From contig DATFJU010000027.1 in NCBI GenBank assembly GCA_035269015.1, positions 1 to 62,000 on the forward strand: a stretch of 62,000 nt of DNA, in the 5' to 3' direction. Positions 25,572 to 55,243 of this stretch are shown here, in pieces. The notes beneath the pieces are model-generated. The model was not told the DNA's origin and searched no databases. It was given only the letters and a program-made list of their open reading frames with translations. The stretch's first letter is position 1. The number at the start of each line of letters is the position of its first letter. A program made the translations under genes and the position numbers. This DNA comes from Patescibacteria group bacterium. Lineage in GTDB: Bacteria > Patescibacteriota > Patescibacteriia > Patescibacteriales > UBA12465.

Positions 25572-25585
25572 ATTTCTTTATTTTA

Positions 25586-26644: not shown

Positions 26645-26648
26645 AATT

Positions 26649-29437: not shown

Positions 29438-30211
29438 ATGAAGATAATAGCTTGGAATATTAATGGTCTTAGAGCTATATTAAAAAAGAATTTTTTAGAG
29501 TTTTTGAACGAATATCAACCTGATATTTTAGGTTTACAAGAGATAAAGATATCTGAAGAAGCTAGAGTTAAAGAAAACCTAGAATTTCCTGGCTATAAAA
29601 TATATTTTAATAGTGCCAAAAGACCAGGTTATAGTGGCACTGCTATATTGGTTAAAGAGGAAATAGTTACTAAAATAGTATCTGAAATAAAAAATGGTTT
29701 CGGAGAGGAAGTCTTTGATAATGAAGGTAGAATTCAAATCTTAGAATTAGAAAAGTTTTATGTTCTTAATTGTTATTTCCCTAACTCTGCAACAGAGCTA
29801 AAGAGGTTAGATTATAAAAGAGACTTTAATGCTTATATATTAAAAAATATAAAAAAGCTAGAAAAGAAAAAACCTGTGCTTCTGATGGGAGATTTAAATG
29901 TAGCCCATAAAGAAATTGATTTAGCTAGGCCAAAAGATAATATAGGTAGCCCTGGTTTTACTTATGAAGAAAGAGAGGATATGGATACCTTTATTAATCA
30001 TGGACTAGTTGATACTTTTAGATATTTTCATCCTGAAAAAATACAATATTCTTGGTGGAGTTATAGAACTAGAGCCAGGCTTAGAAATATAGGTTGGCGC
30101 ATTGATTATTTGTGCGTTTCTGCTAAGTTATTAAGACAAGTACAGAACTCTTACATACTTGATGAAGTGGGAGGTTCTGATCATGCTCCAGTGGGACTGG
30201 AAACAAAATAA
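29438..30211 (+). CDS. xth: Exodeoxyribonuclease III (AP endonuclease)
   Basis: MKIIAWNINGLRA, LQEIK, GDLNVAH and GSDHAP motifs. Confidence 0.93.
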   Translation: MKIIAWNINGLRAILKKNFLEFLNEYQPDILGLQEIKISEEARVKENLEFPGYKIYFNSAKRPGYSGTAILVKEEIVTKIVSEIKNGFGEEVFDNEGRIQILELEKFYVLNCYFPNSATELKRLDYKRDFNAYILKNIKKLEKKKPVLLMGDLNVAHKEIDLARPKDNIGSPGFTYEEREDMDTFINHGLVDTFRYFHPEKIQYSWWSYRTRARLRNIGWRIDYLCVSAKLLRQVQNSYILDEVGGSDHAPVGLETK

Positions 30212-32644: not shown

Positions 32645-33892
32645 ATGAAAAAGATGAAGTATTTTTCTGATAAATTATCAGCTGGTTTTATTGCAATTTA
32701 TTCAGGGCGCATGACCTTAACAGTAGCAACTCAGCTCTTGGGGCTTTTCATGCCTATTTTTTTGTATCAAGTATTTGGTTTTAACATTGTTTGGGTTTTA
32801 GCTTACTATATTTTACGAGATTTTCTATATTTAATTTCACTACCCCTTGGTCCTAAAATATTTATGAATAGAGTTGGTCTTAAAAATTCTATTAGATTAG
32901 GGGTTATTTTTGGTTCTTTGTTTTATGCAGGTTTTTTTATTTTAGAAAAGTATACTAGTAGTATGGAGGTTATATCAGGAGAGTTTGTACCAGAAGCCTG
33001 GCTAGTTACTATTATATTAACTGTAGCCGTAATCTTTACTCTCCATCGCTTAACCTATTGGGTGCCACTTCATACTGATATAACTGAATTTACCAGTAAA
33101 AAAGATAGAGGGAAGCAAGTTAGTCTAATGGCGGTCACACAAGTAGTTCTAGGAGCCTTAATGCCTCTAGCTGCTGGTTGGTTACTGATGGAATTTAGCT
33201 ACTCCTTTTTATTTGTGATAGCAATACTAATTTATTTTGTCGCTTTAATTCCTTTCTCAGCTTTACCTAAGGTAAATGAAAAGTTTTCTTGGACTTATAA
33301 AAAAACTTGGAAAGAATTTACCTCTAAAGCCAGAAGAAAATTAATGATTGCCTATAGTGCGGATGGAGCTGAATCAGGAGTAAGACTTATTATTTGGCCT
33401 ATATTTATTTGGGAGCTTTTAAATGGTAATTATTTAAAAGTGGGTATTATTTCATCACTTGTAGTAGTGGTTACAGTTGTTGCTCAACTTATTGTCGGTA
33501 AATATACTGATAAAGTGAGCAGAAAGAAAATGTTAAAATATGGCACTATTTTATACTCTATTGGTTGGCTTGTTAAAATATTCATTGCTTCTGCTTTTCA
33601 AATATTTGTGATTTCTGCCTATCATAACATAGCTAATATTTTTTCTCGTACTTCTTTTGATGCTATTAATTATGAAAATGCAGCTGATCAAGGGCATTAT
33701 GTTGATGAATATACAGTGCTTAGAGAAATGGCAATTCAGGTGGGTAGAATAACTATGTCTGTTGCTATTATTCTCATAGTTCCATATTTATCAATTGAGT
33801 TAACCTTTATTTTTGCAGCCCTAGCGGTACTCGCTATGAATTTTATTACTGATTCTCAAGAAATAGAAAGAGCTAAGTTAATGAGAATTTAA
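32645..33892 (+). CDS. Polytopic membrane protein, MFS-transporter-like
   Basis: About 10-12 hydrophobic helices in two halves with a basic central loop. Family assignment is tentative. Confidence 0.5.
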   Translation: MKKMKYFSDKLSAGFIAIYSGRMTLTVATQLLGLFMPIFLYQVFGFNIVWVLAYYILRDFLYLISLPLGPKIFMNRVGLKNSIRLGVIFGSLFYAGFFILEKYTSSMEVISGEFVPEAWLVTIILTVAVIFTLHRLTYWVPLHTDITEFTSKKDRGKQVSLMAVTQVVLGALMPLAAGWLLMEFSYSFLFVIAILIYFVALIPFSALPKVNEKFSWTYKKTWKEFTSKARRKLMIAYSADGAESGVRLIIWPIFIWELLNGNYLKVGIISSLVVVVTVVAQLIVGKYTDKVSRKKMLKYGTILYSIGWLVKIFIASAFQIFVISAYHNIANIFSRTSFDAINYENAADQGHYVDEYTVLREMAIQVGRITMSVAIILIVPYLSIELTFIFAALAVLAMNFITDSQEIERAKLMRI

Positions 33893-33929: not shown

Positions 33930-34775
33930 ATGAATGATTTACTTAAAAAGACTCAAGAGCTTTGTCGTATCTATGACATTAAACCTCAAAGTAGTATGGG
34001 GCAAAACTTTTTAGTGTCTTTAGAGGTATATAAAAAGATTGTTGCTAGCGCTAATATTAAAAAAGATGAAGTAGTACTTGAGGTTGGCCCAGGACTTGGC
34101 TTTCTTAGTGCTGAACTTTTAAAAAGTGCTAGGAAGGTTATAGCTGTGGAGCTAGATGACAAGCTAGCTAAAGTTTTAGAATTAGCTCTCAGTGCTCACA
34201 GTGTAGATAATTTAGAAATTATAAATGAAAATATTTTAGATTTTGATCCTAGTATTTTAGAAGCTGACTATAAGATAGTAGCTAACTTACCATATAACAT
34301 TAGTTCAGTATTTTTAAGAAAGTTTTTAACAACTAAAAATAAACCTAAGTCCTTAACTTTAATGCTACAAAAAGAAGTAGTGGAAAGGATTGTAGCAGAA
34401 CCGGGTAAGCACAGCTTATTATCCCTTTCAGTTCAATATTATAGTCAAGCCAAATATATAGATACTATTAAAAAGGAAAACTTTTGGCCTCAACCTAAAG
34501 TTGATAGCGCTATATTACATTTAGAAACAAAAGAAGATAAAGAGATTAGTTTATCTAAAGAGGAACAAAAAACCTTTTTTAGACTACTTAAATTTGGTTT
34601 TAGCGCTAAGAGAAAAAAGCTAGTAAATAACCTAGCGGGAGCCTTACAGGTAGATAATGAAGTTATAGAAACTAAAATGCAGGCTGTAGACATTGATATA
34701 AGTATCCGAGCTCAAGGTTTAAGTTTAAATGATTGGCAAAAATTGTTTGCTCAGTTAAGGTTATTTATGGTATAA
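33930..34775 (+). CDS. rsmA: 16S rRNA (adenine1518/1519-N6)-dimethyltransferase
   Basis: GQNFL, SAM-binding VLEVGPGLG and NLPYNISS motifs. Confidence 0.92.
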   Translation: MNDLLKKTQELCRIYDIKPQSSMGQNFLVSLEVYKKIVASANIKKDEVVLEVGPGLGFLSAELLKSARKVIAVELDDKLAKVLELALSAHSVDNLEIINENILDFDPSILEADYKIVANLPYNISSVFLRKFLTTKNKPKSLTLMLQKEVVERIVAEPGKHSLLSLSVQYYSQAKYIDTIKKENFWPQPKVDSAILHLETKEDKEISLSKEEQKTFFRLLKFGFSAKRKKLVNNLAGALQVDNEVIETKMQAVDIDISIRAQGLSLNDWQKLFAQLRLFMV

Positions 34776-34804: not shown

Positions 34805-35467
34805 ATGAAAGTTAACAGAAATTTTGATAATTCAGATAAGAATAAGCCAAAAACCAAATTAATAATTTTTGGCATTTTTTCTATAGCTATTCTTGTTTTT
34901 TGGGTAATGCAAATGCAAGCTAATATTAAAGGACCTTTTCAACTAGGAGATGAATACAGTACTTTAAGTAAGGATAGCTCTAATAATATAGGAACTTGCA
35001 CAGGTTCTGATTGTTTAAGTGACACAGAGCTTAGAGATAAAGACACTGATGGAGATGGCTTAAGTGATTGGGAGGAGATAAATATATATGGCACTTCTGC
35101 TTATTTAGCTGATAGTGATAGTGATGGTATTTCTGATTATAATGAAATTCAACAAGGAACTGATCCTAATTGTGCTGAAGGTAGTGACTGTAGTTATAAT
35201 GATTTTAATAATAATGGTTTAGAAGGTGATTTAGGTTCTACCGGTGATGGGAATCTAGATTTTTCAGGTGATAATATTTCTGTTCCAGAAGATGAAGAAA
35301 AATTAAAAGAAGCTTTATCTGGATCTATTAATCTTGAGGATTTAAAAACTTTACTTTTAGAAAGTGGAGTAGATGAAAAAACAGTTAATTCATTTTCTGA
35401 CGAAGAGTTAAATAAAATCTATAAAGATACTCTATCAGGCATGTCACAGGATTTTAATAATAATTAA
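34805..35467 (+). CDS. TM-anchored acidic protein with thrombospondin-type-3-like Ca-binding repeats
   Basis: N-terminal anchor LIIFGIFSIAILVFWVM. Repeats DKDTDGDGLSDWEE and DSDSDGISDYNE (DxDxDG). Ends 11 nt before the giant ORF. Confidence 0.7.
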   Translation: MKVNRNFDNSDKNKPKTKLIIFGIFSIAILVFWVMQMQANIKGPFQLGDEYSTLSKDSSNNIGTCTGSDCLSDTELRDKDTDGDGLSDWEEINIYGTSAYLADSDSDGISDYNEIQQGTDPNCAEGSDCSYNDFNNNGLEGDLGSTGDGNLDFSGDNISVPEDEEKLKEALSGSINLEDLKTLLLESGVDEKTVNSFSDEELNKIYKDTLSGMSQDFNNN

Positions 35468-35478: not shown

Positions 35479-38400
35479 ATGTTTAAGCACAAAAAAAAGA
35501 CTAAAAAACTTATAATTTTATTTTTTGTGCTATTTTTTGTGTTATCAGGGGTTTTAAATTTTCAGACTGAAACTAAAGCACAGGTTGTTGTTGTGGAGTC
35601 AGTACCTGAAAAAACAACTAACATATTAGACAAAATTAAATCTATATTAAAGAAATTATGGGATAACGCTGGGCAGGAGCTGTTTAATACTGTTGCAACC
35701 AATACTTTAAATAGGTTAGCTTATGACGCCGCTGATGTTATTCTTAGTGGAGATAGCGGGCAAAAACCAATGTTTATTGACAAGAATATGGGTGAATATT
35801 TTGTAGATATTGGTGATGCTGCTGCTGGTGATTTTCTAGATGGCTTGAATGATTTAGGTGACATGAATTTATGTGAACCTAATTTAGCTATTAAAGCTAG
35901 CATAGGTTTAGGTTTAGTAGATACAAAAAGACCAGCAGAGCCAAGTTGTAAGGCCAGTGATATGGTTAAATCTTGGGAGGATGAGTTTCAAAAGTTTAAA
36001 GATATGAGTGAGATGAGCAATAAAGAACTTTTAGGGAAAGTGGTAGGCTCATTTAATCCTACCTCTAGTGATTTAAGTGTTACAGCTTCTTTATTCCAAG
36101 GCATGGAGGAGAAAGAGGCATCTGAAATTAAAAAAGCAGAACAGGAACAAGATGCTACAGATGGTAAATTTATAGATTCTACAAGTCCAGGAGGTCAAAT
36201 AACAAAAGTTCCTGGTACAGATCAAAGAAGTTTTGAAAATGCTCAAAAGAAAATGACTGATAATGTTGATGCTTGTGATGGTGATAATCTTTTTGCTTGT
36301 GCAGGTAATGTCTTTATTAATCACTTAGCTTTAAATGCCTTTAATAGAGCTTTAGATTATTCTTTTTCTCCTGATGAACAAGATCCTTTAGCTGATTCTG
36401 ATCCTTATGATTTATCTGATCCTGACAGTGATCCATCGGTTGTTTATCAAAAAGATCAGCCAACCTTAAGACGAATTCTAGAACCTAATTTTAATGAACG
36501 TGTAGATTATAATATTTTATCTAAATTAAGTGTTTGCCCTCAAGCTAATATTGGTGGACAAGATTTTGTACCTGCGCCAAATAATTGTGTAATTGATGAT
36601 CAGTTTAGTTTAGCTATTACAGAGCAAAAAACAGTTGGTGAGGCCTTAAACGAAGGTTATTTGCATAAAGATTGGCGCTTTAAAGGTCTAAATGAAAACG
36701 TTGCTTATAATGAAGCTTATTCTTATCGTTCAATTTTAATATTAAAAAAATATCGTATAGTACCAGCTGGTTGGGAGGAAGCTATTTATAGGGTTAGTGA
36801 TAGTAAAAATCAGTCAGCTACTTTACAAGATTTAGTATCTTGTTTTAGTCCTGATGATGAGTACAATACTTTTAGTCAAGGTTTTAAACCTAAGGGATGG
36901 TGTAGAGGCTTAATTGATCCTAAGTGGGTATTAAAACTACCTTCACATTATTGTGCTAAAGAGGGTTATGGTCATATAATTCAGAAAGAAGTAACATATG
37001 GTCAAGGTGTAGAGGATAAAGACGACTATATTGCTAGTGATATTTTTGTAACAAGAAGTGATGAATATTGTGCTGATGAGCAAAGTTGTATTAAAGAAAA
37101 TAGTAATGGTACTTGTGAGGTTTATGGTTATTGTAATGAAGAAAAAAGAACTTGGAATTTTAACCAAGATTCTTGTGATCCGGTATTTAATACTTGTGAA
37201 ACTTTTAAAAATGTAGATAACGGGAAATCAATTTCATATTTAAAAAACACTTTAGATTATAGTGGCTGTACTTCTGATAGTGCTGGTTGTAGTTTTTATT
37301 CATATAATGGTCCTTATAATGTTGATAATGATAAAGTTACTTGGAAATCATATAATGATATTTATTTAAATAATAATGCAGAATCTTGTGCTGAGTCAGA
37401 TGAGGGTTGTAGTCAAATGATAAGAGTTCAGGCAGCTTATGGTCATAATTTTATTAAAAATGGTGGTTTTGAAGAAATAGATTTTGATTTTAATTCTTGG
37501 ACTAGTTGTTCAAGTCCTGCTTGTTTAGTAGATGATTCATATAGCGGTGATCAAGCTTTAGAGGTTAATAATGAAAGTTTATCTGTAGAAGTGGGACCAC
37601 AAACATATAATATTTCTGGTAAAACATATACTTTTTCATTTTACGCTAAAGATTGTACATCAGGAGATGATTTTGGTTTCGTTGGTGGTAAGTATAATGT
37701 TTTAGATGATAGTGAGGAATGGCAATATTATAGATTGTCTAATACATATTTCGCCAATCAAACTTTAGGTAATACAGTTGGTTTAGAAATTAATAGCAAC
37801 ACTTGTTTAATTGATGATGTAAAATTAGAACTTGGTAATATAGGTACAAAATATAGTGATTATGGTGATAACAATGTTATTTATCAAAAAATGCTTCCAG
37901 AGTATTTATGGAGTGATTGTTATGAAAATCCAGATTCGGGAAACCTAGACTTTAGCTTGAAAGAAGATGCTCCTGATGTTTGTAGTGATAGTTTTAGCCG
38001 TCTTTGCAATGCTGATGAAGCTGGATGTAATATTTATACTAATGTAAAAGATAGAGAAGATCAGGTGGTAGCTCAAGTGTCTACTCAAGATTATTGTCCT
38101 GGAGAATGTAATAACTATGACTTATATATTGGTGCAAAAGATTATTTTAACTCTACTCAAGGAGCTAAGTTTATCCCGGAAACAGCCAATACTTGTTCAG
38201 CAGCGGATATAGGTTGTATAGAATTTACTAACCTTGATGTTTTAAATTCAGGAGGAGAAGCAAAAGAATATTATACTTCTTTAAAACAATGTATTAAACC
38301 TAGTGAAAATGATTGTACTGCTTTCTATGTCTGGCAAGGATCTAATGATGGGTCTTATCAATTAGAATCATATACTTTAGAGAAAGCTGAATATACTAAT

Positions 38401-41400
38401 GAGCCAGCGGTAGTGGAAAACGATACAAGTCTTTGTAATGAAGATATATATAATTTACCTATTACTGATCCTAATTATAATTCTGACTGTTATCAATTTT
38501 ATAATACTGAAGGTGAAGTTTCATATCATTTATATTCAAAAACAATAACTTGTTCTGAAGATTGTCACCCTTATAGAATGTCCAAGAGAAACATAGATAG
38601 TAATATTAACACTGCTAGTGTCTGTAATAGTTTAGGGGATTCAAGTTATTGGGAAAACAACACCAATAGTTGTTATTACTGTGAAAATGGTGGTACCTGG
38701 TCTCAGGAGTATGATTCTTGTGTTTATCAGGCTATTCCTGGGCAAGGTGAGTCTTGTTCTCAGGAAGCTAATGGATGTAGAGAGTATAATGGTAATTCAG
38801 GTAATAATATTAGAATTGTTAAAACTTTTGATTTTGCTAATTCACTCCAAGGCTGGGAAGGAAGATGTGGCGATGCTGCTGAGCTTAGTACAGTTGCTTT
38901 AGGTAGAAATGACCAATCTTTATGGTATAAGCAAGGAGGAGGTAGTGAATCTTGTTCTCAGGAAGATAATAATGAGCCTAGGGCAGAAGTTGTGTTAGGA
39001 TCATATAATTTAAATAGTGGTAGCGCCTATAGTTTAAAGTTTATGGCTAAAGTAGATACTGCTACAGATCTTAATATATATTTTGAAAATGATAATAGTC
39101 AAAAATCTTATTTTGAAATCACAGGTGCAGAGGATAGTAGCTCTGTTACTTTGCAAGGTGATAGTGCGTGGCATCAATATGAATTAAGTTTAAGTTCTCT
39201 TGATCATATATTAAGCGGGAATGAGGCTTTAGTGGTAGAATCTGATACTTCATTTTATTTAGACAATATAATACTTAGAGAAATTGTTGATAAGTATTAT
39301 CTTATAGAAGATTCTTGGGAAACACCGAATTCTTGTTATTATGATACCTTAAATGAGTATAAAGGTGTTGATTATAATCTTGGCTGTAGTGAGTATAGTA
39401 ATAATTTAGATCAATTTGTATTCTTGCGTTCCTTTAGTAGTTTATGTCAAGAAAGTGCTATTGGTTGTCAGTTAATGGTTGATACGTATGACACTAAAGA
39501 TTATAAGAAGAGTGTATACAATGATGATAATGATAATGGTGCTTGTGATGAAAATGAAAATGATTGTGTAAGCATCAATGCTGATGAATATGTATTTGCT
39601 GTATATAACGCAAATAATACTTGTTCATCTGATTTCAAATCTTGTCAGCGTTTGGGTAAGTCTGTTAATTATGGTGATCAAGTTTTATTTAGTGATGTTT
39701 ATTTAAAGAATGATCCTGATAAATACAGTACTATTTTATGTTCAGAAGACACAGCAAATTGTGAGGCCTGGGTTTCTGGCGCCGGAGAGAGGTTTTATTT
39801 TAAAAATCCTAGTGATAAGATATGTGAATGGAAAGAAGGTGATGAGGGTGAGTGGAATTGGTACAAAAAAAGTATAAATAAGTGTGATGAAAATAGTAAC
39901 GGAATAGCAGAAGAATATGAAAATGTTTGTGTAAGCTCCGATGATTGTCTTATCCCAAGCCAACTAATGGATGGTGAAAATAGTTGTTTATCAGATGATG
40001 ATTGTCCTGATAGTAATTCTTGTAATGATGGTTATTGCGTGTATGAATGTGTAGAACAAGAAGAAAATTTCCCTTGTCCTGTTGATAGTAATAAAACTAT
40101 TGGTTTTGGTGGCGGTGGTAATCAGGTTAATCAACCTACAGATGATTGGGTAGGTATTTGTGAAAAAAATGCCTCTACTTGTAGTGAATATATTGATCCA
40201 GTTAGTGATTATGCCATAAATAGCTTATCTAATCCTAGATTTTTAGATTTAAATGAGGATGGATCTTATGGAGATGAATGGAATATTGAAAATAACAATG
40301 CTTATCAATCCGTTTATTTAGTAGCTAATAGAGCCTATGTCTTTGCAGTAAATAATTTAAATGTTGATTCTGTTGAGCCTTATATAGAATGTGATTCTAA
40401 AATTAATGTATTAGATAGTGATAATGAATTTTTTGAAGCTAATGAAAATAGAATTAATCTAGATTCAAGTATAGATAATCGTTATAGAATTATAGTTAGC
40501 TCTACAGATCAATTCTGTAGGTTACATAGAGACACTGATGAATACTTAGAGAATGAACCTGAATTGATATTTAAAGAAGCTATTATTGATTATCAATTAT
40601 CTAAGAATTTAGATACAGATTCTTGTAATGGCAAGGTTGATATTGAAAAAGGTTGTGTATTGTTTAATGAAAGAAGTCAAAATACATCTGCGGGGTTAAG
40701 CTCATTAATTTATAATGCTTATGATAGCTACATTAGTGACAGCAAATCTCCTCAAAGTGTAAACAATGGAGAGAACTCTTTAAATGCTAACACTTTAATT
40801 AAAGTAGATCCTAATAGAGTTTGTAATACTTGGTTAGCTTGTAGGACAAAGGTGGTTGATGAAAATGGTGACATCACTTGTTATGATGTTGGTGATTGTG
40901 ATGCTTTAGATAAAGATGGTGAGTGTGCTAATTTTTTACCAAACTCTAATGCAATAAATACTTTTGATACAGTTAGAGATAAAAATTCCAGTGGTTATAG
41001 TGTTTTAAATAAATACAATGTTAGTAATATGAGTGAAAGTGGTTCTACTCCTCAATCTAGCTCCTTTGATTTTGAGGGAGGGGACGCGTCTAATGTTTGG
41101 TCTGATGATGCTGGCGATGGAAATATTGCTATTATTGTTGATGAACCTGCACCTTCAGATTCAGACAAGCAATTTAATGCCTCCTATCCTGCAGAGGGTA
41201 AAGCATTTTTAAAGAGTAAAGCCGATCGTGAGGTAAAATCACCTATAATAGATATTCAAAGAAATCAACAATATTATATAAATTATTTATTAAATACTAA
41301 TAATTTAACTTTTGGCACAGAAGCTGAAGTAAGTATAATAGGAGTTATTAGTGAAAATGAAGATGGAGTAGGGGAAGAGGGAGATGTAATTGTTTCATGG

Positions 41401-43497
41401 CAGGATAAAAGCAGTGTTTGGGAGCGTAAAGTTCATGACTTTATAGTTACTCGCTATGATAAAATAAAAATTCAAATATCTTCTGATGAAGTGGATGATA
41501 GTAAATATGTTTATGTTGATGATATTAATATTGAACCAGTTTTAAAGGTTGGTGGTAATTCTGAAGATAAGTTTGTATCTAAAACATGTCGATTATATCC
41601 AAAACAAGATAGTTTAAGTTGTATTAGTACTAATGAGAATGTTATTGCCAATGGTTGGCAGGGTTATTGTTTGCAAAAAGATCCTTATCATCCTGATATC
41701 TGTTTAATGTGGTATCCAGTAGATAGTATTAGTACTTTTACTAATAAAGATAGTGGCTATCAAGGTAAAACACCTTTATATTATTGTTCTCAAGCTGATG
41801 GTAACTTTGTTTTAACTGAGAAGAGAAAGCCTTTTTTACTTGAATCTATAGGTAATATGTGTGTTGATAAAGATATGCTTTATGGTGACTGTCAGCTTAC
41901 AGTGAGAAAAGTGCCAGACGATTGGTATGAATGTGATAATCCGTGGGGGTGTCCTAGAGTATATTTATCTGATGAGCTTCGAGAACATTATGTTGAATAT
42001 AGGTTCTATCTTGATGAAAGCTGGGATGGTTGCACTTTTTATCATGGCAAGAACAAAGCTCGCGCTTATAGTTATGCAATCCCTAAAGGAGTTGGTCAAG
42101 TAAAAATAAAAGCTCGTGGTGATTGGCGTACTTATGATATACCTGATAGTGATTCGTTTTATAATACCACTGTTTATCAAAGTGGTGATGCTAAAACCTA
42201 TACTTTTGAACCGACAACAGATAATAATGGTTGCGTTGGTGAGTATAATATTTATCATGATATCAAATTTGTAAATGGGGAAAGTTGGTATCCTTATAAT
42301 GGCCTTAAAGAAAGAGAAGATGAAAGAATTGATGATTCTATACCTTATGGTGGTGGTACTATCTCTGATGATAGAGATCCAATACTTAAGATTTATGATT
42401 ATGAAACTGATAAGTTTGTTTCATATGAAAAATATAATGTAAGATGTAAGACATTGGAAAAAGTGGTAAGTGATGATGGATCTAATAAGGCTTGGTCTGT
42501 TAGGTCTTCAAGTGATAGTGGGGAAGACTCTACTCCAGATTTTTTAAATACTTATTATAGCCCTATGTCTATGTGGCTTATTGATGGTTTAAATCAGTAT
42601 AATTTTAATAGAGAAGATCAACCTTTTGGTTCATCTTATTTATCAGATAATGCTTTTGCTGATGAGATTGTTTTTAAGAGTCGAGATAATAAGGATGATT
42701 TTGATTCTTATGCTGGATTACCATATGGCTGTGAAGCTGATACTCCTCCTGGAAATATTGGTTGCATATCATTAGGTTTTTGTGAGGATCAACAACACTT
42801 GACTTGCCTTCTTCCTTCTGGGAATGAGAATGATGAAATAAAGAATAAAATGAATGTAAAACAATGTGGTAATAATGATAAATGTATTCCATATGTAAAA
42901 AAAAGGTATGGAGGATTCGCCGCACCTCTTCCAGATGATGGTGATAAAATTTTAAAAAATATATTTTTAAAATCTTATTCATCTCACAAATACGATGCAA
43001 TTAATGATGCTTGGGTCCCAGATGGACCTTATGATTATAGTCCTACTGGAGAAGAAGATACAATTCCTTTCTGTGGCGAAGAAAGAGCTGAAGCAGAGTT
43101 TTGTTATATTTTTCCACAAATTAAAAATATAGGTTTATATAAAGCTGGGCAGGAAATGGATTTTAATGAAAGCTCTTCTTCTTTTATCATCTATGAACCT
43201 GGAAATTATGATTTAAAGTTTAACTCTATTATTGATAAAGAGCAGTTACCACTTTATGAAATTGTAATTGATTGGGGAGATGACAGTGTCCAAACTATTA
43301 CTGATCAGGATTATAGACCAAACGAAGAACAACCTCATATTGTCAGTCATATTTATACAGGAATTGAAGGTGAGACAGAAAGAGAAATTAAAATACTCAT
43401 TAAAGATAATTGGGGTTTCACTAGATGTTGTAGAAATGATGATGATTGTAGTTATATGCAAGAACGTATTCCGCCTCAATGTCCAGTAAGGAATTAA
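35479..43497 (+). CDS. Giant (2672 aa) secreted cysteine-rich surface protein
   Basis: An uninterrupted 8-kb ORF. Signal peptide (KKLIILFFVLFFVLSGVLNFQTETKAQ), about 100 Cys, ten C-x6-C motifs, three CBM4/9-like segments, and a C-terminal PKD-like segment (IDWGDDS...HIY). Details are in the findings. Confidence 0.9.
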   Translation: MFKHKKKTKKLIILFFVLFFVLSGVLNFQTETKAQVVVVESVPEKTTNILDKIKSILKKLWDNAGQELFNTVATNTLNRLAYDAADVILSGDSGQKPMFIDKNMGEYFVDIGDAAAGDFLDGLNDLGDMNLCEPNLAIKASIGLGLVDTKRPAEPSCKASDMVKSWEDEFQKFKDMSEMSNKELLGKVVGSFNPTSSDLSVTASLFQGMEEKEASEIKKAEQEQDATDGKFIDSTSPGGQITKVPGTDQRSFENAQKKMTDNVDACDGDNLFACAGNVFINHLALNAFNRALDYSFSPDEQDPLADSDPYDLSDPDSDPSVVYQKDQPTLRRILEPNFNERVDYNILSKLSVCPQANIGGQDFVPAPNNCVIDDQFSLAITEQKTVGEALNEGYLHKDWRFKGLNENVAYNEAYSYRSILILKKYRIVPAGWEEAIYRVSDSKNQSATLQDLVSCFSPDDEYNTFSQGFKPKGWCRGLIDPKWVLKLPSHYCAKEGYGHIIQKEVTYGQGVEDKDDYIASDIFVTRSDEYCADEQSCIKENSNGTCEVYGYCNEEKRTWNFNQDSCDPVFNTCETFKNVDNGKSISYLKNTLDYSGCTSDSAGCSFYSYNGPYNVDNDKVTWKSYNDIYLNNNAESCAESDEGCSQMIRVQAAYGHNFIKNGGFEEIDFDFNSWTSCSSPACLVDDSYSGDQALEVNNESLSVEVGPQTYNISGKTYTFSFYAKDCTSGDDFGFVGGKYNVLDDSEEWQYYRLSNTYFANQTLGNTVGLEINSNTCLIDDVKLELGNIGTKYSDYGDNNVIYQKMLPEYLWSDCYENPDSGNLDFSLKEDAPDVCSDSFSRLCNADEAGCNIYTNVKDREDQVVAQVSTQDYCPGECNNYDLYIGAKDYFNSTQGAKFIPETANTCSAADIGCIEFTNLDVLNSGGEAKEYYTSLKQCIKPSENDCTAFYVWQGSNDGSYQLESYTLEKAEYTNEPAVVENDTSLCNEDIYNLPITDPNYNSDCYQFYNTEGEVSYHLYSKTITCSEDCHPYRMSKRNIDSNINTASVCNSLGDSSYWENNTNSCYYCENGGTWSQEYDSCVYQAIPGQGESCSQEANGCREYNGNSGNNIRIVKTFDFANSLQGWEGRCGDAAELSTVALGRNDQSLWYKQGGGSESCSQEDNNEPRAEVVLGSYNLNSGSAYSLKFMAKVDTATDLNIYFENDNSQKSYFEITGAEDSSSVTLQGDSAWHQYELSLSSLDHILSGNEALVVESDTSFYLDNIILREIVDKYYLIEDSWETPNSCYYDTLNEYKGVDYNLGCSEYSNNLDQFVFLRSFSSLCQESAIGCQLMVDTYDTKDYKKSVYNDDNDNGACDENENDCVSINADEYVFAVYNANNTCSSDFKSCQRLGKSVNYGDQVLFSDVYLKNDPDKYSTILCSEDTANCEAWVSGAGERFYFKNPSDKICEWKEGDEGEWNWYKKSINKCDENSNGIAEEYENVCVSSDDCLIPSQLMDGENSCLSDDDCPDSNSCNDGYCVYECVEQEENFPCPVDSNKTIGFGGGGNQVNQPTDDWVGICEKNASTCSEYIDPVSDYAINSLSNPRFLDLNEDGSYGDEWNIENNNAYQSVYLVANRAYVFAVNNLNVDSVEPYIECDSKINVLDSDNEFFEANENRINLDSSIDNRYRIIVSSTDQFCRLHRDTDEYLENEPELIFKEAIIDYQLSKNLDTDSCNGKVDIEKGCVLFNERSQNTSAGLSSLIYNAYDSYISDSKSPQSVNNGENSLNANTLIKVDPNRVCNTWLACRTKVVDENGDITCYDVGDCDALDKDGECANFLPNSNAINTFDTVRDKNSSGYSVLNKYNVSNMSESGSTPQSSSFDFEGGDASNVWSDDAGDGNIAIIVDEPAPSDSDKQFNASYPAEGKAFLKSKADREVKSPIIDIQRNQQYYINYLLNTNNLTFGTEAEVSIIGVISENEDGVGEEGDVIVSWQDKSSVWERKVHDFIVTRYDKIKIQISSDEVDDSKYVYVDDINIEPVLKVGGNSEDKFVSKTCRLYPKQDSLSCISTNENVIANGWQGYCLQKDPYHPDICLMWYPVDSISTFTNKDSGYQGKTPLYYCSQADGNFVLTEKRKPFLLESIGNMCVDKDMLYGDCQLTVRKVPDDWYECDNPWGCPRVYLSDELREHYVEYRFYLDESWDGCTFYHGKNKARAYSYAIPKGVGQVKIKARGDWRTYDIPDSDSFYNTTVYQSGDAKTYTFEPTTDNNGCVGEYNIYHDIKFVNGESWYPYNGLKEREDERIDDSIPYGGGTISDDRDPILKIYDYETDKFVSYEKYNVRCKTLEKVVSDDGSNKAWSVRSSSDSGEDSTPDFLNTYYSPMSMWLIDGLNQYNFNREDQPFGSSYLSDNAFADEIVFKSRDNKDDFDSYAGLPYGCEADTPPGNIGCISLGFCEDQQHLTCLLPSGNENDEIKNKMNVKQCGNNDKCIPYVKKRYGGFAAPLPDDGDKILKNIFLKSYSSHKYDAINDAWVPDGPYDYSPTGEEDTIPFCGEERAEAEFCYIFPQIKNIGLYKAGQEMDFNESSSSFIIYEPGNYDLKFNSIIDKEQLPLYEIVIDWGDDSVQTITDQDYRPNEEQPHIVSHIYTGIEGETEREIKILIKDNWGFTRCCRNDDDCSYMQERIPPQCPVRN

Positions 43498-43548: not shown

Positions 43549-43577
43549 TTGACATAATACGATATATTTGATATTAT
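43549..43577 (+). promoter_or_regulatory. Consensus-like sigma70 promoter of the lipoprotein gene
   Basis: TTGACA (43549..43554), a 17-nt spacer, then TATTAT (43572..43577). Confidence 0.6.
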
Positions 43578-43617: not shown

Positions 43618-44037
43618 ATGAAAAACTTAGTTTTCTTATTAGTAATAGTAGCTTCTAGCTTAATTTTGTTTTCTTGTGAAAAGGATGAACCAAATCCTGA
43701 ACCAGATTATACCTATATTTGTTACCGGATAATAGTTCATGCAAACTTAGAGGTGTATAATGCTTGTAATTATACTGTAAGTGATATATATCCAGCTGAC
43801 GAGTATACGCAGGATGATCCAATAATTTGGAATGATGATTTTGCAGGTTTTGAAGATATCTTTATTTTAGAAAAAGATGTTTACTTGGGACAAACCATGA
43901 CAGTTTCCTTTTATGTAGAGGATCTCGGTGGTTCTGCTTATTATGAAGATGAAAGACAAATACTTATTGAAGCTCCAGAAGGGTATGGCGGATTAGGTGA
44001 ATACATAGAAATTGTCTTTACAGTTCCTGATCCTTAA
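43618..44037 (+). CDS. Small acidic lipoprotein
   Basis: 139 aa. Signal peptide ending in the lipobox-like LILFSC. Acidic mature part. Has its own promoter, SD and terminator. Confidence 0.75.
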   Translation: MKNLVFLLVIVASSLILFSCEKDEPNPEPDYTYICYRIIVHANLEVYNACNYTVSDIYPADEYTQDDPIIWNDDFAGFEDIFILEKDVYLGQTMTVSFYVEDLGGSAYYEDERQILIEAPEGYGGLGEYIEIVFTVPDP

Positions 44038-44047: not shown

Positions 44048-44077
44048 AAAAGTCTGTGTTAAACAGGCTTTTTTTCT
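44048..44077 (+). terminator. Intrinsic terminator after the lipoprotein gene
   Basis: AAAGTCTGT-GTTAA-ACAGGCTTT (one G-U pair), followed by TTTTTT. Confidence 0.7.
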
Positions 44078-44130: not shown

Positions 44131-44838
44131 ATGGCTACAGAAACAGACACACAAACAGCAAGAATAGGAAGTAAAAGAGCGCAATTAAATAGGGAAAGAA
44201 GGGAAAATGCTAATGTGAGTAGAGTACCTGAAGGACAAATGGCTGGAGGTGGAGCTAATTTAACTTTTGATAATGCAATAAGGGGAGCTAGTGATAAAGA
44301 AGATAGTGATAAAAAACAAAATGAAAATAGTTTAGTAAGAGGTGGTGGTGACAGAAGTGCAGAAGCTGGTAATAAAGGTTTAAATTATAGACGAGTAATG
44401 GCGCAGGAGAAGAAAAAGCAAAAGAAGAAAGCTGATAAAAAAAAGAAAATGAGCCCTACTTATCAAGGTTCTAAAAAAGCTTTATCAATGGCTTGGAGAT
44501 CTTTAATACCTAGTTGGCTTACCACTATCTTTATCATTGATCTTTTTGCTTTTTTACATGTAGTATTTCCTAAGTTTTTTTGTTCTTTAGGAGAAGAGTG
44601 GGAATCACCAATGTCTGCTGTAGCAGGAGATAAAGAGGGCTCAAGCAATAAATCAGCTATGATGAAATCAGTTGAACCAATGATAGTTATTTTAATTAAT
44701 TTAGTTGTTTTAGGAGTTATTGCTGTAATTTTAGCTAGTTTAGCTTTAGTGGTAGAAGCAATTTCAGATCCTATAGGTTTTGTGGGTTCATTGATGGGAG
44801 ATTTATGGGAATCATTAAAAAGTGCTTTTGGAGGATAA
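44131..44838 (+). CDS. Hypothetical protein: basic disordered N-terminal half plus a two-TM C-terminal half
   Basis: 235 aa. K/R/G-rich N-terminus, two hydrophobic helices after residue ~120. First gene of the T4SS-like block. A shorter product from the internal ATG (MSPTYQG...) is possible. Confidence 0.55.
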   Translation: MATETDTQTARIGSKRAQLNRERRENANVSRVPEGQMAGGGANLTFDNAIRGASDKEDSDKKQNENSLVRGGGDRSAEAGNKGLNYRRVMAQEKKKQKKKADKKKKMSPTYQGSKKALSMAWRSLIPSWLTTIFIIDLFAFLHVVFPKFFCSLGEEWESPMSAVAGDKEGSSNKSAMMKSVEPMIVILINLVVLGVIAVILASLALVVEAISDPIGFVGSLMGDLWESLKSAFGG

Positions 44839-44841: not shown

Positions 44842-47433
44842 ATGAAGAAAAATTTAAAAAAAGAATTTGCGATTATAACAGCTGTATCATTAGTGATAAC
44901 AGGAGTTTTTTTGTTTGTACATCCTTCTTTTGCTGGTTGGGGAGCTAAGCTGTTAACAGGTTTAATAGGAGCAATTATTTCTGGATTAGGCGTTGTTGTT
45001 GGTTTAGTGATTGAAGTTTTAATAAGGATAGCTCAATACAATGACTTTACCAACGCTAGAGCTATTGAAAAAGGTTGGCTTGTGGTTAGAGATTTAGCTA
45101 ACATGTTCTTTATTTTAGTATTTTTGATAATTGCTTTCGCTACTATATTAAGGGTAGAAAGCTATAATTATAAAAAACATTTGCCCAAGCTTCTTTTAAT
45201 GGCAGTGTTTATTAATTTTTCTAAAACTATTGCTGGTCTTATTATAGACTTCGGACAAGTGGCTATGATTACTTTTGTTAACGGTTTTAAAGATATTGGT
45301 GCTGGTAATTTAGTCCATATGTTAGGGTTAACAGAAATAATGCAAATGAAAGAAGGAGGAGAAGTAAATGATTGGACAATACTTTCAGCTTATCTTTTAG
45401 CTTTGTTATACATGATAGTTGCTTTAGTGACTATTGTGGCTATATTAGCGGTTTTAGTTATGAGAATGGTGATGTTGTGGATATATGTAGTTTTATCACC
45501 TTTAGCTTTTCTGTTAGCAGCTTTTCCTGGTGGTAAGAAATATTCTTCTATGTGGTGGTCTAATTTTTCTAAAGAAGTTATTGTTGGTCCAGTTTTAGCT
45601 TTCTTTATTTGGCTATCCTTTGTTACCGTTAGTATTACTACTGGAGGTAATGAAATTATCCCAATGGATACAATCACTGATGACATGACTAAAGAACAAA
45701 TAGAGGAAATACAGAATACTAATTCTCAAATTAGTAAAGCAGCTACTTCAGATGTCTTTATTAAATTCATCATCTCTATTGGTATGTTGGTTGGTGGTTT
45801 AGTGGTTAGTAAGCAAATTGGAGCTACTGCTGGTAGTGCTGCAGGTACTGCTTTAAATACTTTAAATTCAGGAAAGAGTAAAGTGCTTGGTGCTGGTAGA
45901 GCTGCGCTTAGAGGTGGAGTGAGAAGAGCTGGAAGAGGTTTAAAAACTATGGGAAGCAACGCTCTTGATCGTACTAGTGAAAAAGTGGGTATGGATTTGA
46001 ATGTAGGTAGAGTTAGTAAGAGGTGGAAAGCTCAAAGACAGCAAAGTAGAACAGATAGACAATCAAGAATTTATCAAAAATCTCTAAAAAATGCTAGTAG
46101 TGGTGGTGTTAGAGGTGGTTTAGCTATGCTGTCAACTGGTGATAAAGCTCGCAAGTATCTAGGAAAAGGACAATTTTTTAAAGCTGTGGGAAGTGAAAAT
46201 AAGATAAATAAAAGAAAAGAAAGATTAAATAAGAAAAGTGAAAAGATATCTACGATGAAAGAGGAGAGAGGAAAGTATATGAGTAATAATGAACATGAAG
46301 AGAATGTAAATAAAAAAACTGGTTTAGAAAATAGAAATAAAGAGATAGATAATAAATTAAAAGAAAAGAAAAATTCATTATCAAGTGGTAATTTAAATGA
46401 CGAGCAAGAGAAGGCTGTAAAACAAGAAATACAGTCTTTAGAAAATGAGAAAAAACAAAATAGTGATTTGTCTAATAATATTGATAATAAACTAAAGAGT
46501 GTTAATGTTGATGATAAAAAAGCTTCACAAATTGATAATAAGATTGAAAGTTTGAAAAAAGAGAAAGAGGGTATATCTGATAATATTGGTAGTCTTAAGG
46601 CTAGTAAAGTTTCTATGGCAGGTGCTCAAGCTTCGGCTGATGCGGAGGTTGAGGCTGTGGCTAGTAAGGATATTGCTCATACACAAGATAGTGATGATTT
46701 AGTTGCTGTGATAAAAGATGCCATAGATAAGAAGGATAAGAATATGGCTAAAGCTGCTTATAAAAAATTAGCAAAAACTGGTAATTCTGATAAATTAAAT
46801 CAAGCTCTTAATTTAGGGACCGATCATAAAGGTATGTCTAAATTAGCAAAAAAGCAATTTCAAGAAAAAGCTGGTATGTCAGAGCAGGAATCACTTAGTT
46901 TAATGGGTGAGGTTGAGGGTATTAATAAAGGTTTGGGTAAGATGAGTGGTTTTGGTCATGTGACCATGGAAGATGGTAATTGGAGAGAATCATCTAAAGA
47001 TGAGAGGGATGCTGCAGCTTATACAGAGGCAAGTAAAATTAATCCTAGAAAACTAGCTCTTCAGGCGGATAGTTCAACCATAGGTTCATATAAAGATGGG
47101 GCTGAACATACTTCTGAAAATTTTCAGTTAAATAAAGATTTTATAGCTTTAGTATCTAATAATGATCCGCAATATGCTAAAGAAATTGAAAAAAATAATA
47201 ACCCTGATTTAATTAACAATCTAGCTACTACTAATAATATAAAAATATTAAAAGAAAATGGAGCTGTAGAATTAGCGAAAGTTTTAGAGAAAAAACTTGA
47301 TAAAAGTTTTGGTGATTCAGAAGATAGCGTTAAAAAAATGCTAAAAAATCTTAATTTAGATACTAATTCAGGAGGTGATTCAAGTTCAGAATCTTCTGAA
47401 GATGATGATAAAAAAGCTGAAGAAAACAATTAA
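44842..47433 (+). CDS. Polytopic VirB6/TrbL-like membrane protein with a ~500-aa coiled-coil/low-complexity extension
   Basis: The first ~330 aa contain 6-8 TM helices, with a GW..VRD.ANMFFI motif region like VirB6/TrbL-type proteins found beside CPR pilins. The remainder is K/E/N-rich predicted coiled coil. Confidence 0.5.
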   Translation: MKKNLKKEFAIITAVSLVITGVFLFVHPSFAGWGAKLLTGLIGAIISGLGVVVGLVIEVLIRIAQYNDFTNARAIEKGWLVVRDLANMFFILVFLIIAFATILRVESYNYKKHLPKLLLMAVFINFSKTIAGLIIDFGQVAMITFVNGFKDIGAGNLVHMLGLTEIMQMKEGGEVNDWTILSAYLLALLYMIVALVTIVAILAVLVMRMVMLWIYVVLSPLAFLLAAFPGGKKYSSMWWSNFSKEVIVGPVLAFFIWLSFVTVSITTGGNEIIPMDTITDDMTKEQIEEIQNTNSQISKAATSDVFIKFIISIGMLVGGLVVSKQIGATAGSAAGTALNTLNSGKSKVLGAGRAALRGGVRRAGRGLKTMGSNALDRTSEKVGMDLNVGRVSKRWKAQRQQSRTDRQSRIYQKSLKNASSGGVRGGLAMLSTGDKARKYLGKGQFFKAVGSENKINKRKERLNKKSEKISTMKEERGKYMSNNEHEENVNKKTGLENRNKEIDNKLKEKKNSLSSGNLNDEQEKAVKQEIQSLENEKKQNSDLSNNIDNKLKSVNVDDKKASQIDNKIESLKKEKEGISDNIGSLKASKVSMAGAQASADAEVEAVASKDIAHTQDSDDLVAVIKDAIDKKDKNMAKAAYKKLAKTGNSDKLNQALNLGTDHKGMSKLAKKQFQEKAGMSEQESLSLMGEVEGINKGLGKMSGFGHVTMEDGNWRESSKDERDAAAYTEASKINPRKLALQADSSTIGSYKDGAEHTSENFQLNKDFIALVSNNDPQYAKEIEKNNNPDLINNLATTNNIKILKENGAVELAKVLEKKLDKSFGDSEDSVKKMLKNLNLDTNSGGDSSSESSEDDDKKAEENN

Positions 47434-47435: not shown

Positions 47436-48425
47436 ATGAATAATTTATTTCAAGAAAAACTTAAAAAAATAGATGATATAATTAAAGTTTTAGCTCAGAC
47501 TAATAATTTTAAGGATGCTTATGTTTTGTATAAAAAGATTAAAACTTTTTTAGATGATAATAAAGTTTTAAAAGAAAAGGATTATATAAATTATAGACGA
47601 TTTGAGAGAAATTTATTTAAAGCTCAATTTTTGTGTTTAAATTACTTTGATGATTGGCAAGAGATTTCTAGTTTGATTAAAAATCATCTTGATTTAGCTT
47701 TTGAAATGCCAGGATATGATTTTTGGTCAAAACTTAAAGTAAATTTACAATATATTTTTGATTGGTCAGAAAGAGATGAGATAAAAGAAATGTTGGTAAA
47801 GAATATTAGAGATTGTAATAGAAAAATAATTAATGAAGATGATTATAATGTTCAAGTTATAACTAAAGTATCTAATTGGATAAAAGACTTTATTTCTAAT
47901 ATTGATTTTGAAGGCAATATGAATCCTGTAAAGAAAGCGGAATATATTAATAACAATAAAAACATAAAGTTTTTAAAGACAGAAGATAAGCAAAAAGTGA
48001 CAGCACTTTTAAATTTGTATGAAGCTTTGAATTTATCATCTCAAGCAAAAAATGGCTTTGAGGAAACTGTATTTATGGTTGTAGATGGTAAAAAAATTAT
48101 ATTAAATAGAAATGGTATAGATGATGTAGATATTAATCTTAAAAAGATTAAAAATGTTAAAGCTTATCAAAATGAACAAGAGGATGAGCAATTTAAAGAT
48201 GAGGATAGGAGTATAGAAGAGAGTAATAATGAAGAAGGTAGTAATGAAAGCATTAAAGATGTAAGTGAAGGTGAGGATTCAGATAATAATTACAGCTCTG
48301 ATGTGCAAGAAAAAATCCTGGTTTTAAAGGGTATGCTTTCTGAATATGATCAAGATAGTTTAGAAGCTAAAGCTTTACAAGAAGAGATTGATAGATTAGA
48401 TAAAATCAATGTTAAACAAGGATAG
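47436..48425 (+). CDS. Hypothetical soluble protein with an acidic C-terminus
   Basis: 329-aa ORF starting 2 nt after the previous stop. No TM segment and no recognisable motif. Confidence 0.6.
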   Translation: MNNLFQEKLKKIDDIIKVLAQTNNFKDAYVLYKKIKTFLDDNKVLKEKDYINYRRFERNLFKAQFLCLNYFDDWQEISSLIKNHLDLAFEMPGYDFWSKLKVNLQYIFDWSERDEIKEMLVKNIRDCNRKIINEDDYNVQVITKVSNWIKDFISNIDFEGNMNPVKKAEYINNNKNIKFLKTEDKQKVTALLNLYEALNLSSQAKNGFEETVFMVVDGKKIILNRNGIDDVDINLKKIKNVKAYQNEQEDEQFKDEDRSIEESNNEEGSNESIKDVSEGEDSDNNYSSDVQEKILVLKGMLSEYDQDSLEAKALQEEIDRLDKINVKQG

Positions 48426-55242: not shown

Positions 55243-55243
55243 T

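Follow-up and report, generated by a model that had tools for sequence, protein, structure and literature searches.

A giant cysteine-rich exported protein family encoded beside type IV secretion genes in Patescibacteria, with a proposed role in host contact

The DNA analysed here (the window) is a stretch of 62,000 nucleotides from a Patescibacteria group bacterium (contig DATFJU010000027.1, assembly GCA_035269015.1, positions 1 to 62,000 of the forward strand). It represents a low-GC (approximately 30%) chromosome with genes for rpoB/C, leuS, ksgA, murJ, lepA and recJ. The subject of this study is a giant gene of the window that lies next to genes of a type IV secretion system (T4SS) and encodes an exported protein exceptionally rich in cysteine (Table 1). 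An earlier inspection of the letters alone, referred to below as the sequence-only reading, had described this gene as a single uninterrupted open reading frame (ORF), and its reading frame was indeed found to be intact. The same inspection had estimated approximately 100 Cys residues for the product; the count is exactly 100 (3.7%), an even number, with the first Cys at residue 132 and none in the signal peptide. The dominant residues of the protein are Asp, Ser, Asn and Glu.

The claim that the protein is secreted by means of a signal peptide was upheld, as a Lys-rich start, hydrophobic residues 7-32 (within which the sole strongly hydrophobic 19-mer of the protein lies) and a following small-x-small site (TKA/Q) constitute a Sec layout. 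Across the family the consensus at the cleavage site is A-x-A, and an N-terminal hydrophobic segment was identified in 193 of 211 relatives. No LPX[TSA]G motif occurs anywhere in the giant protein, and none of the 211 relatives was found to possess LPXTG in its last 60 residues or a hydrophobic 19-mer in its last 80. With neither LPXTG nor a C-terminal hydrophobic anchor, the mature protein must be either held by protein-protein contacts or released.

A homologue search over 5.8 billion proteins returned 100 relatives, every one of which was from Patescibacteria or unnamed, and nearly all of which were 2,400-3,500 aa in length. Those with a name were all recorded as ‘hypothetical protein’ of Patescibacteria, Parcubacteria, Falkowbacteria, Pacebacteria or Uhrbacteria. 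An exhaustive phmmer search with residues 36-1235 as the query matched 1,085 clusters of 50% identity at E <= 1e-30, and relatives were located in at least 143 GTDB species using one conserved peptide pattern with confirmation by tblastn. Overall, the architecture is common to more than 1,000 clusters of proteins 2,000-3,500 aa in length, all of them from Patescibacteria and recorded as hypothetical. The giant protein is thus a member of a real and large family that is restricted to Patescibacteria, and literature searches found no published description of it, the closest text being a passing mention of large Cys-rich extracellular proteins in Peribacteria (PMC4736985). Many records of metagenome-assembled genomes with a locus of Patescibacteria type are titled ‘uncultured Gammaproteobacteria bacterium’ or ‘Bacillota bacterium’ (L007, L015-L020, L023, L028, L031, L046, L074 and others among the loci collected). 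The gene set at these loci is ksgA, a gene for a TSP3-repeat protein and the giant gene, plus leuS where the flank reaches far enough, and their GC content ranges from 29% to 54%. These titles are probably record-title errors and not occurrences outside Patescibacteria.

The most distinctive feature of the protein is a short motif, C-x6-C. All ten copies listed in the sequence-only reading were located at the codons it had assigned to them, and an eleventh (GACDENENDCVS, C1356/C1363) and an overlapping twelfth in the C-terminal tail (C2650/C2657) were identified. This number is clearly in excess of chance, with 12 copies compared to 3.7 +/- 1.8 in composition-matched shuffles, none of 1000 of which reached 12. 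The extended form C-x6-C-x2-[FYWMLIV] occurs 11 times, compared to an expected 0.84 +/- 0.90 (maximum of 5 in 2000 shuffles). The spacing C-x5-C was likewise found to be enriched, its 11 copies being reached by 2 of 1000 shuffles. Across the family, the motif follows the consensus C-x4-(V/x)-G-C-x-E-(Y/F), and relatives possess between 9 and 21 copies of it among 53-152 Cys residues. The repeat had been described as outside any named family, and no Pfam or NCBIfam entry was found to cover it.

Conservation of Cys was assessed with an alignment of 93 full-length members, using positions of the query (the giant protein of the window) as reference. Sixty six of the 100 Cys of the query are conserved at 80% or more, and ten of the eleven C-x6-C pairs at 99-100%. 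The remaining pair, 1356/1363, is present in approximately 76% of relatives, its two residues always appearing or disappearing together, so that both Cys of the motif act as a single unit. Other variable Cys also co-vary two by two, with r = 1.0 for 266/274 and 946/1025, 0.94 for 1356/1363 itself, 0.92 for 2463/2469, 0.85 for 2532/2542, 0.84 for 2435/2443 and 0.83 for 1130/1159, and residues 1503/1509/1515/1520 are gained and lost as one block. Furthermore, with signal peptides excluded, the number of Cys is even in 195 of 209 full-length relatives (binomial p ~ 6e-42). This family-wide parity is far stronger support for disulfide pairing than the single even count from which the sequence-only reading had argued. 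Because of this parity and the gain and loss of Cys in pairs, full disulfide pairing of the giant protein is very likely on sequence grounds. The simplest reading of the C-x6-C motif is a local disulfide that would close an 8-residue hairpin.

The layout of the protein was examined with profile searches and with AlphaFold2 (AF2) models of two 1,200-aa tiles (29-sequence alignments, aa 1236-1472 being left out). The mean predicted local distance difference test (pLDDT) values of the two tiles were 59.6 and 69.4, giving confidence at domain level only. Over the whole protein, Pfam produced one match, to a carbohydrate-binding module (CBM) family and below threshold, and NCBIfam produced none. 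The N-terminal region (aa 36-345) had no match in Pfam, NCBIfam or PDB; it possesses the conserved motifs AYD, GQKPLF, IGD-AAG-F and NLC-P and one invariant Cys pair (132/157). The alpha/beta domain that follows contains invariant residues R426, W432, E433, P481 and W483 and the motif LRKYRI-P-GWE-A ... DPNWVLKAP. The C-x6-C motifs are situated in the Cys-rich regions, at 566/573, 597/604 and 637/644 in connector 1 (all invariant), at 843/850, 906/913 and 1093/1100 in region 2, and at 1323/1330, 1356/1363, 1382/1389, 1421/1428 and 1561/1568 in region 3, and the variable Cys pairs 2435/2443, 2463/2469 and 2532/2542 are found within aa 2301-2546. The sequence-only reading had correctly placed three jelly-roll modules (JR1-3) and a C-terminal beta domain; it had missed further beta domains at aa 915-1095, 1572-1732, 2105-2300 and 2302-2546. 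One of these, M4 (aa 1572-1732), showed no profile similarity to JR1-3 by hhalign. The overall layout is a chain of beta-sandwich modules, at least three of which are CBM4/16/22-like, linked by Cys-rich connectors in which the Cys are essentially invariant. The giant protein represents a new, Patescibacteria-specific family with a conserved scaffold that has no Pfam or NCBIfam match, and of which only the three jelly rolls resemble known CBMs.

Table 1. Regions of the giant gene and its product, followed by the neighbouring genes of the window
Feature	Position (nt)	Strand	Residues (aa)	Remarks
Giant gene	35479-43497	+	2,672 in total	100 Cys; net charge ~ -237; Sec signal; no LPXTG; no C-terminal anchor
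Signal peptide	35479-35583	+	1-35	K-rich n-region; hydrophobic core aa 7-32; TKA/Q cleavage-type site
N-terminal region	35584-36513	+	36-345	long helices predicted; pLDDT < 50
Alpha/beta domain	36514-36945	+	346-489	conserved; pLDDT 70-85
Cys-rich connector 1	36946-37425	+	490-649	11 Cys; low-confidence AF2 model
JR1	37426-37863	+	650-795	CBM4/9-like beta-sandwich; pLDDT 70-90
Cys-rich region 2	37864-38790	+	796-1104	20 Cys; confident beta-rich domain aa 915-1095 inside
JR2	38791-39294	+	1105-1272	CBM-like beta-sandwich
Cys-rich region 3	39295-40191	+	1273-1571	22 Cys
Beta domain M4	40192-40674	+	1572-1732	pLDDT 70-89; no assigned fold
Cys-rich region			1733-1854	between M4 and JR3
JR3	41041-41553	+	1855-2025	CBM4-2/CBM22-like beta-sandwich; no Cys; pLDDT 70-89
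Cys-rich hinge	41554-41790	+	2026-2104	highly conserved; CRLYP...GYCL-DP...C-WYPVD...PLYYC; upstream anchor of variable cassette
Hypervariable cassette	41791-42378	+	2105-2300	
Beta-rich region	42379-43116	+	2301-2546	pLDDT mostly 80-90
C-terminal beta domain	43117-43464	+	2547-2662	~9 strands; short Cys-rich tail after
DsbA-like oxidoreductase	28653-29351	-		CPYC; membrane-anchored; Pfam Thioredoxin_4 E 1.9e-27, DSBA E 5.9e-15
Exo/endonuclease-phosphatase	29438-30211			
leuS	30234-32618			
MFS transporter	32645-33892			
ksgA	33930-34775			
TSP3-repeat membrane protein	34805-35467	+	220 in total	one N-terminal transmembrane helix; Pfam TSP3_bac E 1.9e-12
Lipoprotein-like ORF	43618-44037	+	139 in total	lipobox-like LFSC
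235-aa protein	44131-44838		235 in total	2 transmembrane segments
Polytopic membrane protein	44842-47433	+	863 in total	~7-8 transmembrane helices, then long charged tail
329-aa protein	47436-48425		329 in total	
Inserted transposase	48526-49806	-		HTH + rve integrase core
537-aa protein	49945-51558		537 in total	
PrgI/VirB3	51562-52014	+		Pfam PrgI E 3.8e-9
TrsD-like/VirB4 N-domain	52017-52697	+		NCBIfam TrsD E 3e-7
VirB4 ATPase	52721-54613	+		CD1110 family; Pfam P-loop_TraG E 4e-28; NCBIfam conju_CD1110 350.6 bits vs 325 cut-off
207-aa protein	54619-55242		207 in total	
Second DsbA-like oxidoreductase	55205-56014	+		CSYC; membrane-anchored; just after VirB4
RadA	56031-57401	+		RadA/Sms-type from Pfam Zn-ribbon, KaiC/AAA_25, ChlI, Lon_C

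The three CBM4/9-type beta-sandwich modules that had been proposed from sequence motifs are backed by both profile and fold searches. JR1 and JR2 were identified as homologous (hhalign probability 96.5%, E 8e-10), with JR3 more distant from both (52-58%, E 1e-4). Residues 657-724 of JR1 matched Pfam CBM_4_9 (PF02018) at 19.6 bits, below the gathering cut-off of 25.9, and a precomputed match to PF02018 exists for about a third of full-length relatives. A profile of the full-length family found only carbohydrate-binding modules among PDB sequences, including 1gui (CBM4) at E 1.7e-4. Over JR2 this profile matched 4d0q (CBM70, E 6.4e-5) and 4xup (CBM22, E 2.9e-4), and over JR3 it matched 2y64, 1k42 and 4bj0 (CBM4-2) at E of about 0.07-0.1. 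Foldseek with the models aligned JR1 to CBM16 and a porphyran CBM (TM 0.57-0.65) and JR3 to CBM22 (TM 0.60) and CBM16 (TM 0.66); by structure, TM was 0.57-0.66 for 2zey/2zex, 0.65 for 8xmz, 0.60 for 4xup, 0.52 for 1gui and 0.51 for 1k42. CBM70, MAM and a gingipain adhesin domain were also matched (TM 0.5-0.66), as were the receptor-binding domains of CDTb and iota toxin Ib. Matches to Elapor1, Cry1 protoxins and enteropeptidase were rejected as multi-domain noise, as they extend over hundreds of columns at a root-mean-square deviation above 20 A. Among viral structure models, the best matches were phage tail fibres and receptor-binding proteins with CenC-type CBMs, at a whole-chain TM of 0.06-0.29. 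The beta-jelly-roll fold modelled for JR1-3 superposes on solved CBM4/16/22 modules.

The proposal of a PKD-like C-terminus was not supported by comparison with profiles. At E <= 1, no Pfam PKD family was matched by any of 31 C-terminal segments, and a PDB search with a profile built from them returned nothing at E <= 10. Hhalign detected no relationship between this domain and JR1-3. PKD structures were absent from the 50 Foldseek matches listed, which are dominated by CBMs. A PKD-reminiscent motif is present, with a family pattern of FN...EQ-PL...IDWGDG...PH..YH.Y...DNWG over aa 2547-2662 that reads IDWGDD...PH..SHIY...DNWG in the giant protein. AF2 assigns pLDDT 80-90 to its strands, and the domain is described here as a confidently predicted beta-sandwich-type fold with this motif.

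Comparison of the query to its closest relative, P0002, revealed a region of a different nature. The two proteins are 79% identical overall and approximately 90% along most of their length, dropping to approximately 60% in JR3 and aa 2281-2520 and to 25-47% in aa 2101-2300. By BLASTP, the query cassette (aa 2105-2300) matched only P0003 (37%) and had no match in P0002, and the cassette of P0002 matched P0004 (46%) and P0010 (43%) and not the query. Conservation is 0.45-0.55 in scaffold segments, 0.34-0.41 in the modules and 0.14 in the cassette. The distribution of the cassette thus disagrees with overall relatedness, which points to its being swapped between close relatives through recombination in which the conserved flanks (PLYYC...GNF upstream) enclose the exchanged part. 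A mosaic of this kind is typically seen in modules whose external partner varies and has to be recognised. Signs of a diversity-generating retroelement were not found in the window, in that no repeat of 40 nt or more links the giant gene to another site of the 62 kb, and the sole reverse transcriptase-like Pfam match is the RNase H gene at 24159-24584.

The genes surrounding the giant gene were compared across 84 loci of the family. A conserved block was identified that consists of the TSP3-repeat membrane protein, the giant protein, the polytopic membrane protein, PrgI/VirB3, TrsD and VirB4. The TSP3 gene, which ends 11 nt before the giant gene in the window, is immediately upstream in 70 of the 73 loci with room for it; bacterial TSP3 repeats are Ca-binding, and the protein is a candidate membrane tether of the giant protein. 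The polytopic membrane protein is found downstream in about 46 of 55 loci (44-47 of 53-58), and genes of the T4SS block directly follow the giant gene in 34 of the 40 loci with at least 9 kb of downstream sequence. Median distances from the stop codon of the giant gene are 1.5 kb for the membrane protein, 6.6 kb for PrgI and 7.7 kb for VirB4. The same gene order surrounds relatives of 37%, 42% and 29% identity, and a compact arrangement of giant gene, 1042-aa protein, 619-aa protein, PrgI, TraC-like protein and VirB4 also occurs. In the window, VirB4 is the eighth same-strand ORF after the giant gene, a transposase on the opposite strand lying between the two. The giant gene is thus within the 20 coding sequences of virB4 that delimited a T4SS cluster in a survey of Patescibacteria (PMC12102498). 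The present locus agrees with that survey, which described these systems as monoderm, MPF-FATA-like and relaxase-free, with TrsD and PrgI next to VirB4, with KsgA often nearby and with radA near in class ABY1 (PMC12102498).

Two DsbA-like oxidoreductases flank the giant-T4SS block in the window. The upstream gene occupies the same position in loci L001 and L003 and is present in about 25 of the 84 loci, and the adjacency of the downstream gene to virB4 is known from this window alone. The 139-, 235-, 863-, 329- and 537-aa neighbours had no match in relaxed Pfam searches, and as a result the label VirB6/PrgH-like for the 863-aa protein is based on its topology and position. For the 139-aa lipoprotein-like gene, position is kept and sequence is not, as no homologue was detectable in the 84 loci and an ORF of similar size is located at the same position in L001 and L003.

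A further gene of the window (25586-26644, minus strand) encodes a VirB2-like T4SS pilin, identified from a weak Pfam T4SS_pilin match, a signal peptide and 2-3 hydrophobic helices. It carries a C-terminal extension of approximately 190 aa with 20 Cys (24 Cys in the L001 homologue) and lies inside a pyruvate:ferredoxin oxidoreductase gene set (24681-28651), as it does in L001 and L003. Judged by its sequence, this Cys-rich pilin would join the giant protein as another T4SS-linked extracellular protein rich in disulfides.

Other observations were made on this region. RadA, the next gene beyond the T4SS block and the second DsbA-like oxidoreductase, hints at the class of the window, given the ABY1 association mentioned above (PMC12102498). 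The 329-aa and 537-aa genes are adjacent in L001 (22449-23444 and 23461-24867) and are split by the transposase in the window, where it may break the transcription of the T4SS genes that come after it. In L085 (relative P0086, Falkowbacteria), HicAB and HepT/MNT toxin-antitoxin pairs and Amidase_6 follow the giant gene at approximately 20.9-25.8 kb and precede a large protein of more than 960 aa, and insertions seem to be tolerated on this side of the giant gene. Elsewhere in the window, a 1.1-kb gap after rpoC holds small ORFs (12906-13402 on the minus and 13642-13851 on the plus strand), namely an overlapping pair that by eye resembles a toxin of RelE/ParE type (90 aa) and an antitoxin (75 aa), and a 69-aa membrane ORF with a C-terminus resembling SHOCT by eye. 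Purine-rich (GAA/AAG) low-complexity stretches at 3360-3650 and 8745-8833 encode the Lys/Glu/Asp-rich tails that end an 884-aa ORF (1048-3702) and rpoB, and the 863-aa and 537-aa proteins of the T4SS block end in tails of a similar charge-rich kind.

Taken together, the product of the giant gene is proposed, with middling confidence, to be a Sec-exported, disulfide-rigidified and glycan-binding extracellular arm by which the Patescibacteria T4SS makes contact with a host. In the proposed mechanism, DsbA-like enzymes would form about 50 disulfides in the protein after its export, with C-x6-C pairs stapling short hairpins at module boundaries to produce a rigid, protease-resistant and calcium-loaded long stalk. 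The helical N-terminal part would dock on the cell by means of the TSP3 protein, the VirB6-like protein or the Cys-rich VirB2-like pilin. The distal CBM-like modules and the cassette (aa 2105-2300) may then bind glycans or proteins of the host envelope, which would set host specificity and hold two cells together for T4SS action. More tentatively, the giant protein could be an integral, lineage-specific component of the T4SS itself, a disulfide-rigidified docking arm or stalk with the TSP3 protein as its tether and the Cys-rich pilin as its partner, in which the exchangeable cassette and CBM-like modules set the host to which the epibiont attaches and on which it feeds. It would then be the missing adhesin of an essential secretion system and a host-range determinant that can be read from sequence. 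The sequence-only reading had suggested a carbohydrate- or surface-binding adhesin, which is plausible. That reading had missed the decisive context of a conserved T4SS neighbourhood as well as the swapped hypervariable cassette.

Published work provides a context for the contact-arm proposal. In a Saccharibacterium, the T4SS and several glycan-binding surface proteins were identified as essential for epibiotic growth (PMC10633639), and the T4SS is essential in the sole genetically tractable species of Patescibacteria, with a function described as ‘completely unknown’ (PMC11665869). The survey of these systems stated that ‘no adhesins, such as the MPF-FATA PrgB, were detected’ (PMC12102498).

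Several points weigh against the proposal. The giant protein matched no recognised T4SS component (VirB1-11, PrgA/B/C, TraN) in Pfam, NCBIfam or PDB sequences, carbohydrate binding is predicted from fold alone with the CBM_4_9 match of the query below the Pfam threshold, and the N-terminal third and the Cys-rich connectors are of low AF2 confidence. The linkage has exceptions, as 5-6 of 40 loci lack T4SS genes after the giant gene. In addition, leuS and ksgA lie in the same conserved block, and the synteny of these two and of the exo/endonuclease-phosphatase gene matches that of the T4SS genes, so that part of the linkage may be mere gene-order inertia. A promoter-like site (43549-43577) just downstream of the giant gene and a terminator-like hairpin (44048-44072) after the 139-aa ORF suggest that the giant gene may be transcribed apart from the T4SS genes, a signal of use as a caveat only since the scan was no better overall than shuffles (85 promoter-like sites versus 97 expected).

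The points concerning synteny, the exceptional loci and transcription would equally be expected of a general-purpose surface adhesin or lectin-like attachment protein that acts independently of the T4SS and is nearby through conserved gene order, and large Cys-rich extracellular proteins of the candidate phyla radiation (CPR) have been noted without a T4SS link (PMC4736985). This alternative is considered rather unlikely. Linkage to the T4SS genes persists down to about 25-29% identity and into the compact arrangement, and the locus of the window is bracketed by DsbA-like genes and lies near the Cys-rich VirB2-like pilin.

A structural protein of the envelope (an S-layer, sheath or surface lattice) whose beta-sandwich modules bind the wall polymers of the cell itself is improbable. 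The very large size, strong acidity (net charge of about -237), Sec export, lack of an anchor, single copy and calcium-binding neighbour of the giant protein would suit such a role, and CBM-like modules are able to bind the wall glycans of their own cell. However, S-layer proteins are usually poor in Cys, no SLH or other wall-binding family was found with Pfam or NCBIfam, and a cassette swapped between near-identical relatives fits a variable external target better than self-assembly.

There is an equally slim chance that the protein is an enzyme acting on the host envelope, that is, a VirB1-like wall-degrading or glycan-cleaving protein with its catalytic site in aa 346-489 and CBM-like modules for targeting. 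CBMs normally accompany glycoside hydrolases, the alpha/beta domain possesses invariant R426, W432 and E433, and VirB1 homologues are scarce near virB4 in most classes of Patescibacteria (PMC12102498). Against this, no catalytic family was matched in Pfam, NCBIfam or PDB sequences, and the 50 Foldseek matches listed per search consist only of binding-type beta-sandwiches and toxin receptor-binding domains. Finally, the concern that several genes were joined in the ORF, by chimeric assembly or by a pseudogene-like fusion, is effectively refuted, since the gene holds no tandem or direct DNA repeats (so that repeat collapse is no concern), its conservation is uniform over its length with 66 invariant-type Cys, and collinear full-length relatives of 2,400-3,500 aa are known from more than 100 independent assemblies.

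A large part of the bacterial diversity that has not been cultured belongs to Patescibacteria, whose cells live on other microbes, attached to them. The giant family is unannotated and adjoins T4SS genes in most genomes examined, and each of its genes (approximately 6-10 kb) occupies close to 1% of the coding capacity of genomes of roughly 1 Mb. If the giant protein is a contact arm, host specificity could be explained, with cassette type readable from sequence as a marker, recombinant modules could serve as probes to find the hosts of uncultured lineages, and structural work on the T4SS would gain a defined extracellular component. The family makes the question of what the Patescibacteria T4SS touches directly testable. 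Whatever its function, a single bacterial protein with probably about 50 conserved disulfides, and with DsbA-like enzymes encoded at its locus, would be an unusually clear example of how a minimal-genome organism carries out extracellular oxidative folding.

With respect to known systems, JR1-3 share with CBM4/9 (CenC-type), CBM16, CBM22 and CBM70 modules the predicted beta-jelly-roll (TM 0.5-0.66), the N-terminal F-E...W pattern and the C-terminal DD-x-L strand pattern. They differ in that sequence similarity is marginal, the giant protein has no catalytic partner domain and its modules are set in what is probably a disulfide-stapled scaffold. Phage tail fibres and receptor-binding proteins with CenC-type CBMs are likewise chains of beta-sandwiches that end in variable, exchangeable specificity modules, and the exchange of the cassette at aa 2105-2300 has its counterpart in the mosaic tips of tail fibres. 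In contrast to phage fibres, the giant gene is cellular, chromosomal and single-copy, its product has no trimeric fibre signature, and whole-chain TM is low (0.06-0.29).

TraN of F-like plasmids is a Cys-rich surface protein encoded with a T4SS, of approximately 600 aa with 22 conserved Cys, which resides in the outer membrane of diderms and stabilises mating pairs by recognising a surface structure of the recipient through a variable region. The F locus also encodes a dedicated disulfide enzyme, the thioredoxin-fold isomerase TrbB. The giant locus is similar in its combination of a Cys-rich surface protein that has a variable region with a locus-encoded disulfide enzyme, but TraN exhibits no homology to the giant protein, is not known to have CBM-like modules and has only about a quarter of its length.

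PrgB (aggregation substance) of pCF10, with PrgA and PrgC, is likewise a large Sec-exported surface protein of a monoderm MPF-FATA-like T4SS locus. As such systems lack a classical pilus tip adhesin, the giant protein is proposed to hold donor and target cells together in a PrgB-like manner. Unlike the giant protein, PrgB is not known to be Cys-rich. The two have no sequence or fold relationship, the giant protein is without LPXTG, and the survey of Patescibacteria reported finding no PrgB-type adhesin (PMC12102498).

Within the CPR, Peribacteria were described as encoding large Cys-rich extracellular proteins in multi-copy clusters, with about 7% Cys and weak similarity to a Myxococcus repeat (PMC4736985). 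These resemble the giant protein in their size, signal peptide and presumed role in attachment. They come from another lineage, and by description they differ from the giant family, in which one ortholog per genome keeps a fixed architecture next to T4SS genes. The giant protein belongs with secretion-system-linked surface adhesins and the Cys-rich surface proteins of the CPR, and is not a categorically new mechanism.

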